Of a stretch of 324 nucleotides of DNA, positions 102 to 202 are shown one piece after another. The position numbers and the translations under genes were made by a program. The notes under the pieces were generated by a model that ran no database searches, was not told the origin of the DNA, and saw only the letters and a list, made by a program, of their open reading frames with translations. The DNA is from Escherichia coli. Lineage in GTDB: Bacteria > Pseudomonadota > Gammaproteobacteria > Enterobacterales > Enterobacteriaceae. Where the stretch lies: the NCBI RefSeq assembly GCF_003334815.1, contig NZ_QOWO01000136.1. One strand, 5' to 3'. Numbering within the stretch: the stretch's first letter is position 1; each line of letters opens with the position of its first letter.

Positions 102-138
102 CCGTAGGCCGGATAAGGCGTTTACGCCGCATCCGGCA
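102..138 (-). repeat. REP/PU element, Z-type, reverse orientation; copy 2 (loop variant ttta)
   Basis: Same as 1-37 except C>T at 123, which lies in the hairpin loop. Confidence 0.8.
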
Positions 139-151
139 GTCGTGCGCAGAT

Positions 152-187
152 GCCTGATGCGACGCTAACGCGTCTTATCAGGCCTAC
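152..187 (+). repeat. REP/PU element, Y-type, forward orientation; copy 2
   Basis: Identical to 51-86. Confidence 0.85.
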
Positions 188-202
188 AAATTCTCGCGCC
201 AC

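Follow-up and report, generated by a model that had tools for sequence, protein, structure and literature searches.

The window, the 324-nucleotide stretch of Escherichia coli DNA analyzed here, is best read as a BIME-2 array of paired Y and Z2 REP hairpins, a known kind of E. coli intergenic repeat. It maps between mhpE and mhpT, and its three full units follow the order A-B-A. We consider it probable that the units of this BIME-2 array are reshuffled by unequal exchange and that the A-B-A order arose through duplication of a two-unit B-A block. Nothing in the window is structurally new. The element is already characterized, and the A-B-A order is an ordinary by-product of the recombinational gain and loss of units.

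Unit structure of the window

TRF resolved the window (1–324) into a single tandem array with a period of 101, 3.2 copies, 97% matches and no indels, and the 101-bp repeat itself is far beyond chance. Position-by-position comparison of the units showed that unit 1 (type A, 1–101, + strand) and unit 3 (also type A, 203–303, + strand) are identical. Unit 2 (type B, 102–202, + strand) departs from both at unit positions 22, 93 and 101 alone, corresponding to 123 (C>T), 194 (C>T) and 202 (T>C) in window numbering. The start of a fourth unit, 21 nt on the + strand (304–324), agrees with all units and stops one base before diagnostic unit position 22, at window position 325. An earlier, sequence-only reading of this DNA had described identical first and third copies, a second copy with three differences outside the stems, and a fourth copy ending one base short of the diagnostic site; the TRF result and the unit comparison bear out the description of the first three copies, and the unit comparison that of the fourth.

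Hairpins and linkers

Each unit is composed of two hairpins and two linkers. The first hairpin, a Y-type PU in REP orientation on the + strand, occupies positions 3–37 and recurs at 104–138, 205–239 and, as a partial copy, 306–324. It is built from a 5′ GTAG (3–6), stems 7–13/30–36 and 16–19/24–27, an AA/GC mismatch and a loop at 20–23, and its DNA fold (3–38) has an energy of −12.2 kcal/mol with a z of −4.3. The second, a Z2-type PU in inverted (iREP) orientation on the + strand, lies at 50–86, 151–187 and 252–288. It comprises stems 51–58/75–82 and 60–64/69–73, the loop TAAC (65–68) and a 3′ CTAC (83–86), and the DNA fold of 49–87 gives −11.6 kcal/mol on the + strand (z −4.7) and −12.9 kcal/mol on the − strand. 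Both hairpins fold well on either strand. Unit comparison delimited a head-to-head spacer between them, the S-type linker GTCGTGCGCAGA (38–49, 139–150 and 240–251, + strand), as well as a tail-to-tail linker joining the Z2 PU to the following Y PU. The latter, also on the + strand, has the A form AAATTCCCGCGCCATCC at 87–103 and 289–305, and the B form AAATTCTCGCGCCACCC, with variants 194 and 202, at 188–204. Unit position 44 (C/T), within the head-to-head spacer, is the marker that exposes hybrid units in other strains.

The names of the two PUs follow from published structures and descriptions. In published nomenclature the Y-type PU reads GTAGGCCGGATAAGGCGTT[C/T]ACGCCGCATCCGGCA, and the y REP oligonucleotide in the crystal structure of TnpA_REP is GTAGGACGGATAAGGCGTTTACGCCGCATCCG (Messing et al. 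2012), with which PU 3–37 agrees. The cleavage site TGCC|TGAT is present in z1 and z2 iREPs and missing from y (Ton-Hoang et al. 2012, PMC3333891). PU 50–86 starts with TGCC|TGAT and equals the second PU of REP325, an array described as Y + Z2 (Qian et al. 2015, PMC4550694). Because TGCC|TGAT is z-specific and REP325 is described in this way, the PU GCCTGATGCGACGC...GCGTCTTATCAGGCCTAC is Z2. With PU 3–37 as Y and PU 50–86 as Z2, position 123 therefore falls in the Y loop, and 194 and 202 follow the Z2 PU in the tail-to-tail linker; the sequence-only reading had the Y and Z labels swapped. The substitution at 123 (+ strand) converts the 4-nt loop of the first hairpin of unit 2 from TTCA to TTTA with no predicted effect on energy, both loops giving −12.2 kcal/mol. 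Positions 194 and 202 sit in the spacer that runs from CTAC (unit 83–86) to the next GTAG; it is 15 nt long up to the unit boundary, or 17 nt from CTAC to GTAG.

The Y and Z2 PUs are also partly inverted copies of each other. For this reason, the minimum-energy RNA fold of the whole window pairs neighboring units over a long distance rather than forming local hairpins (minus strand, −199.8 kcal/mol, z −11.6). RNA folds of single units contain a spacer–linker helix, 41–45 with 94–98, which is missing from the Rfam model; in the whole-window fold, inter-unit pairing takes the place of this helix.

Identity as a BIME-2 array

BIME-2 elements are defined by the Gilson/Bachellier classification, summarized by Ton-Hoang et al. 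2012 (PMC3333891). As in that definition, the Y and Z2 PUs of the window are inversely oriented, GTAG (3–6) and CTAC (83–86) marking opposite directions. They are separated by a short S linker, a spacer of 12–14 nt, with no long L motif or IHF site as in BIME-1, and the IHF consensus WATCARNNNNTTR has no match in the window. BIME-2 units come in multiple tandem copies with a conserved flanking motif (s, l or r); the array has 3.2 copies in the window and up to seven at the locus, and its 17-nt linker is conserved. The array is extragenic: in all genomes examined, it follows the mhpE stop and precedes the mhpT start.

Covariance model comparison matched each unit to Rfam RF02564 (naRNA4) on the + strand, at 6–83 (85 bits), 107–184 (87.2 bits) and 208–285 (85 bits). 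On the minus strand the scores are 62–63 bits, so that every unit stands above the gathering score of 59.5 on either strand. The RF02564 model describes a generic BIME-2 unit. Rfam matches to MIR5274, MIR1151 and Pseudomonas P17 scored far under their gathering thresholds and were rejected as chance.

The mhpE–mhpT locus

All 5,426 complete E. coli genomes contain matches to the window, with a median of 31 places per genome. Near-identical places (99–99.7%) lie between mhpT and mhpE, and every genome examined has a match between these two genes. Both genes are on the strand opposite the window, and the + strand of the window, which is the best naRNA4 strand, is antisense to both. Along the direction of transcription, the order is the mhpE stop, the array, ~190 bp and the mhpT start. 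In K-12 coordinates, the region is at about 374.2–374.8 kb. Scanning the K-12-type intergenic region for promoters and terminators revealed neither a sigma-70-like promoter nor an intrinsic terminator. Open reading frames in the repeats were rejected as genes, only frames of about 40–50 aa running through the units. In some RefSeq records, a 'hypothetical protein' is annotated within the array; the ~41-aa frames there (MQMPDATLTRLIRPTNSRAIRRPDKAFTPHPAVVRRCLMRR), at 2240–2365 and 2543–2668 of the stretch examined, are almost certainly spurious. Literature searches found no paper combining mhpT, mhpE and 'palindromic', and a mhpT/mhpR search gave no relevant result.

No exact copy of the window was found in the 5,426 complete E. 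coli genomes, the best match having one mismatch. One-mismatch versions of its three units are present in DLI.5a, 63-2 and about 20 other assemblies. Metagenome contigs were scanned for the 193-nt A-B-A core, from C44 of unit 1 to C22 of unit 3, with no match.

Copy number and unit order among strains

A search with 1 kb of unique flank per side located the locus in 4,925 of 5,426 genomes, and unit counts were taken from the flank-to-flank distance in an evenly spread sample of 59 genomes. No full unit, only a single Y REP, was present in 31 of the 59, among them the sampled O157:H7 (e.g. strain 1130) and ST131 records. One unit was counted in seven genomes, two units in six, three units in two, four units in ten, all K-12-like, and seven units in one; the remaining two carry IS insertions in the array. 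Flanks of 1,999 bp are 100% identical in XL1-Blue (three units), the K-12-type array (four) and DLI.5a (seven). The array is flanked at both ends by the same Y REP, and the zero-unit state could therefore be either ancestral or the result of complete collapse via exchange between the first and last Y.

Unit order was determined for 22 arrays from complete genomes segmented in register, a sample partly picked for likeness to the window and phylogenetically non-independent. These arrays hold 0–7 units in mosaic orders. Unit types are named relative to A, which is window unit 1: B has T22, T93 and C101; A′ has T44; and C, the last full unit wherever it is present, has A81, T93 and A95. The first unit, u0, combines a degenerate Y palindrome with T44, and p is a final 44-nt partial unit with the Y palindrome only. 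The K-12-type array reads u0 B A C p. WEM25 and EC6 have u0 B A p, XL1-Blue u0 A C p, XL10-Gold u0 A A A C p, 63-2 A′ B A C p, LR-46 u0 B A′ B* A C p, DLI.5a u0 B A A′ B A C p and G6/7 u0(C44) C p. BL21, TB06052, D8, NCTC11023 and others are further mosaics, NCTC11023 consisting of a K-12-like left part and a BL21-like right part. Comparison of the same locus across strains, as the sequence-only reading had asked for, thus gave a copy number that varies (0–7 units) and a regular A/B alternation in LR-46 alone of the 22 arrays.

The B unit as it stands in the window is also found in the K-12-type, DLI.5a, 63-2, WEM25, EC6 and NCTC11023 arrays. Its three diagnostic sites, 22, 93 and 101, occur in other combinations as well: T,T,T in HNSQ2209 and BL21, T,C,T in TB06052 and C,T,T in D8. 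The sites are uncoupled: rather than a fixed member of a dimer, B represents one combination among independent polymorphisms of the unit.

Several arrays showed individual features. Laboratory K-12 derivatives (K-12-type, XL1-Blue and XL10-Gold) differ from one another, so either the array changed within decades of propagation or the repeat was mis-resolved by assembly. The array of 51243816-SK1A (640–1270 of the stretch examined) is irregular, with a partial duplication out of register following u0, in which the linker ...CCCGC is joined to ATCCGGCAG..., and a 1-nt deletion in a CTAC tail. Its source is either rearrangement through microhomology or faulty assembly, the chromosome being a whole-genome-shotgun one. 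In strain 5444 (700–905 of the stretch examined), the array is bordered by an IS621-family (IS110-like) element. The junction, ...ACAGTAT|CTACAAATTCTCGCGCCAC, falls at the CT of the Z2 CTAC tail, and the left part of the array is missing from the stretch examined. Between mhpT and mhpE, IS621 is also found in S19-141 and IS1397 in SK0189. Elements of the IS621 and IS1397 types are known to target REP/BIME sequences (PMC1525189).

The paralogous REP325 array

The REP325/naRNA4 array (Rfam RF02564; Qian et al. 2015, PMC4550694) lies at a different locus from the mhp array, in the yjdM–yjdN interval. Its Y and Z2 hairpins are those of the mhp array, and its tail-to-tail linker (the 'U' linker CAAATTCCCGCACCCTCC) is nearly identical. 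The two arrays differ in period, the K-12 copy of REP325 having six tandem 100-bp units compared with a period of 101 in the mhp array, in the head-to-head spacer (GTCGTGCGCAGA in the mhp array, ACGGTGCCGAC in REP325) and in the Z2 loop (TAAC in the mhp array, TTGC in REP325). Transcription, HU binding and a nucleoid role are reported for REP325 alone; in the mhp array, the naRNA4-like strand is antisense to its flanking genes.

REP325 has a comparable X-Y-X pattern (4216–4872 of the stretch examined, minus strand), in which units 2 and 4 are the same and unit 3 differs at three non-stem spacer sites. Variation in REP325 is confined to loops and spacers. The T at window position 123 (unit T22, the TTTA loop) is the state of both REP325 and the Rfam naRNA4 consensus, and B-like T22 and T93 are present in the REP325 loci of K-12 and Escherichia sp. 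E1V33. A scan of 100,044 species-representative genomes for the linker returned one match, the REP325 locus (yjdM–yjdN) of Escherichia sp. E1V33.

Origin of the A-B-A order

In the proposed mechanism, near-identical units undergo unequal exchange in register, by homologous recombination or by replication slippage, and the array thereby gains, loses and reorders units. Duplication of the B-A block in a K-12-type array (u0-B-A-C-p), by exchange between A and u0, would then most likely account for the A-B-A order. Over unit positions 27–101, the sole difference between u0 and A is position 44. In the K-12-type array, exchange of A (or C) with the u0 of the other copy would duplicate 202 (or 303) bp; a crossover within 27–43 is predicted to leave the hybrid A′, and one within 45–101 a unit indistinguishable from A. 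LR-46 is the exact 202-bp duplication product with the A′ marker, and DLI.5a is the exact 303-bp product. B comes directly after A′ in both arrays, as it does after u0. The reciprocal 202-bp deletion is represented by G6/7, whose u0 has acquired C44. The window, with A, B, A and a unit start, would represent the expected 202-bp sister product, in which exchange took place 3′ of position 44. As the exact window is absent from the complete genomes and the metagenome core scan was empty, the predicted u0-B-A-B-A-C array is one that we infer.

Identical flanks combined with differing unit numbers indicate that the exchange events are recent. The three B-specific bases are likely old unit polymorphisms common to paralogous BIME-2 arrays, which persist because of their location, one in a loop and two in a linker. 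Recurrent mutation could account for T44, which would then be no junction marker, and some order differences, such as u0 A A A C p in XL10-Gold compared with its K-12 ancestor, might stem from errors in assembly or polishing. The sequence-only reading had found the pattern consistent with hairpin constraint or with very recent amplification or gene conversion. Amplification is the part that stood, given the range of 0–7 units, the arrays of 3, 4 or 7 units within identical flanks and the A′ hybrids, while constraint could not be read from three sites (P=0.14).

Constraint on the stems

It is possible, at somewhat less than even chance, that the differences lie outside the stems through constraint and not recency, either by selection or by non-propagation of stem-mutant units. 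The three sites of the window say little on this point: 48 of the 101 unit positions are stem, and the probability that all three differences fall outside stems is therefore 0.14, which is non-significant. This agrees with the caution of the sequence-only reading that three sites are too few to exclude chance. At the mhp locus, the 22-array sample has 17 variable unit positions, and by site the stems vary as often as the remainder (9 of 48 stem and 8 of 53 non-stem positions; Fisher p=0.79). Frequency reveals a different distribution. Among the common variants (≥6 occurrences), seven of eight are non-stem (22, 44, 66, 67, 93, 95 and 101, against stem position 81), whereas eight of nine rare variants (≤4 occurrences) are in stems, mostly in edge units, a difference with p=0.003 among copies that are non-independent. 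A random spread of variants across stems and loops had been named in the sequence-only reading as one result that would refute it; the sites are indeed spread evenly, but the common variants avoid the stems.

More pronounced is the K-12 copy of REP325, where 12 positions vary among the six units and none of the 48 stem positions does (p=0.0003). Published work likewise describes conserved REP parts and variable linkers (Ton-Hoang et al. 2012, PMC3333891). Against a strict reading, the C unit of the mhp array bears a common stem change, G81A. Taken over the BIME-2 family, these patterns suggest that constraint, or preferential spread of intact units, is real and likely acts alongside recent duplication. 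The stem-constraint reading is compatible with unequal exchange as the main explanation and is no true alternative to it. Stem transitions also showed a strand asymmetry, which is non-significant: five produce G-U on the mhp sense strand, and two do so on the opposite one.

Alternative origins of unit B and of the A-B-A order

Gene conversion from a paralogous BIME-2, such as REP325, might have written unit B into an A-type array, an origin that we regard as improbable. The T22 loop does have the REP325 and Rfam consensus state, and the E1V33 REP325 linker CAAATTCTCGCGCCATCC also has T93. However, B retains the mhp-specific head-to-head spacer and TAAC loop, unlike REP325, so that any conversion tract must be patchy, and C101 is absent from the REP325 copies examined. 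B also occupies the same place, after u0, in many strains and is therefore old at the mhp locus, which counts against gene conversion.

An unlikely route is amplification of the units not by homologous exchange but by the REP-associated tyrosine transposase (TnpA_REP/RAYT), cutting C|T in iREPs and linkers. TnpA_REP cleaves and recombines single-stranded BIMEs in vitro, a model of BIME amplification has been proposed in the literature, and C|T is the minimal 'linker' cleavage motif of this transposase. On the + strand, TGCC|TGAT and GGCC|TACA sites are found in every Z2 iREP, the substitution at 194 adds an extra C|T (TTC|TCG) to the B linker, and the observed junction intervals leave room for transposase-mediated events. 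Yet all products are in-register multiples of 101 bp with junctions in long identical tracts, as homology-driven exchange predicts, and XL10-Gold seems to have expanded A units without the extra C|T; amplification in vivo is not shown in the TnpA_REP papers examined. It is extremely unlikely that, through TTC|TCG, A and B units differ in cutting and the B-A pair would be a natural 202-bp unit of transposase-driven amplification.

We consider it very unlikely that the A-B-A order is an artefact of mis-phased or collapsed units in the source assembly. Errors arise easily in tandem 101-bp repeats, the sampled 51243816-SK1A array is irregular, and an exact match is missing from the 5,426 complete genomes and from metagenome contigs. 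Nevertheless, both unit types are real and common, the one-mismatch versions come from independent assemblies, and A-B-A is a simple predicted product of recombination.

Very unlikely, too, is a true 202-bp higher-order repeat of A+B alternating along the array, a possibility raised in the sequence-only reading: A-B-A in the window and B-A′-B*-A in LR-46 fit it, but LR-46 is the sole alternator among the 22 arrays, regular and conserved alternation being absent from the sample, other arrays run B-A-C, A-A-A-C, A-C or B-A-A′-B-A-C or are mosaics with sites 22, 93 and 101 uncoupled, sampled arrays have at most seven units, and the unit after a B-A step has C22, hence is not B, in eight of nine sampled cases. 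Unit orders differ among strains, and as a standing structure the 202-bp repeat is unsupported; what the idea most likely points to is a single event, the duplication of a two-unit (202-bp) block.

Possible function and significance

By analogy with related elements, the mhp array may be bound and cleaved by gyrase, may form hairpins in read-through transcripts and possibly yields an HU-associated naRNA. Gyrase cleavage is enriched in BIME-2 and favors y REPs, in particular their loops and mismatches (Sutormin et al. 2019); the supplementary gyrase text examined has no entry for mhpE or mhpT. REP325 RNA with HU condenses DNA (Qian et al. 2015, PMC4550694). REPs are also cited as mRNA stabilizers and attenuators.

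BIME-2 arrays, their conserved hairpins and variable linkers, and their strain-to-strain copy number are already documented, and the finding is of small significance beyond bookkeeping. Its value is practical. Unit number and order at mhpE–mhpT change between strains with identical 2-kb flanks, which makes the array a marker that changes fast and, at the same time, a hazard for assembly. Single unequal-exchange events can be reconstructed from position 44 (C/T) and the distinct edge units, and the locus is therefore a convenient natural system for tandem-repeat turnover or for the contribution of TnpA_REP.

Comparison with known systems

BIME-2 copies at one locus are well conserved, and their copy number differs between strains (Ton-Hoang et al. 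2012, PMC3333891). The mhp array shares these properties, with units well conserved inside the locus and a strain-variable copy number, as well as the alternating Y and Z2 PUs, the short head-to-head linker, the conserved tail-to-tail motif, the tandem copies and the extragenic site. The window has no structural difference from BIME-2, and its spacer sequences are locus-specific variants. Compared with arrays that evolve by unequal crossing-over, such as satellite and rDNA arrays, the mhp locus likewise has hybrid junction units and reciprocal duplication and deletion products, and its interior units are homogenized while the edge units u0, C and p are divergent. Unlike satellite and rDNA arrays, the mhp array is tiny, with 0–7 units, and carries no stable higher-order periodicity.
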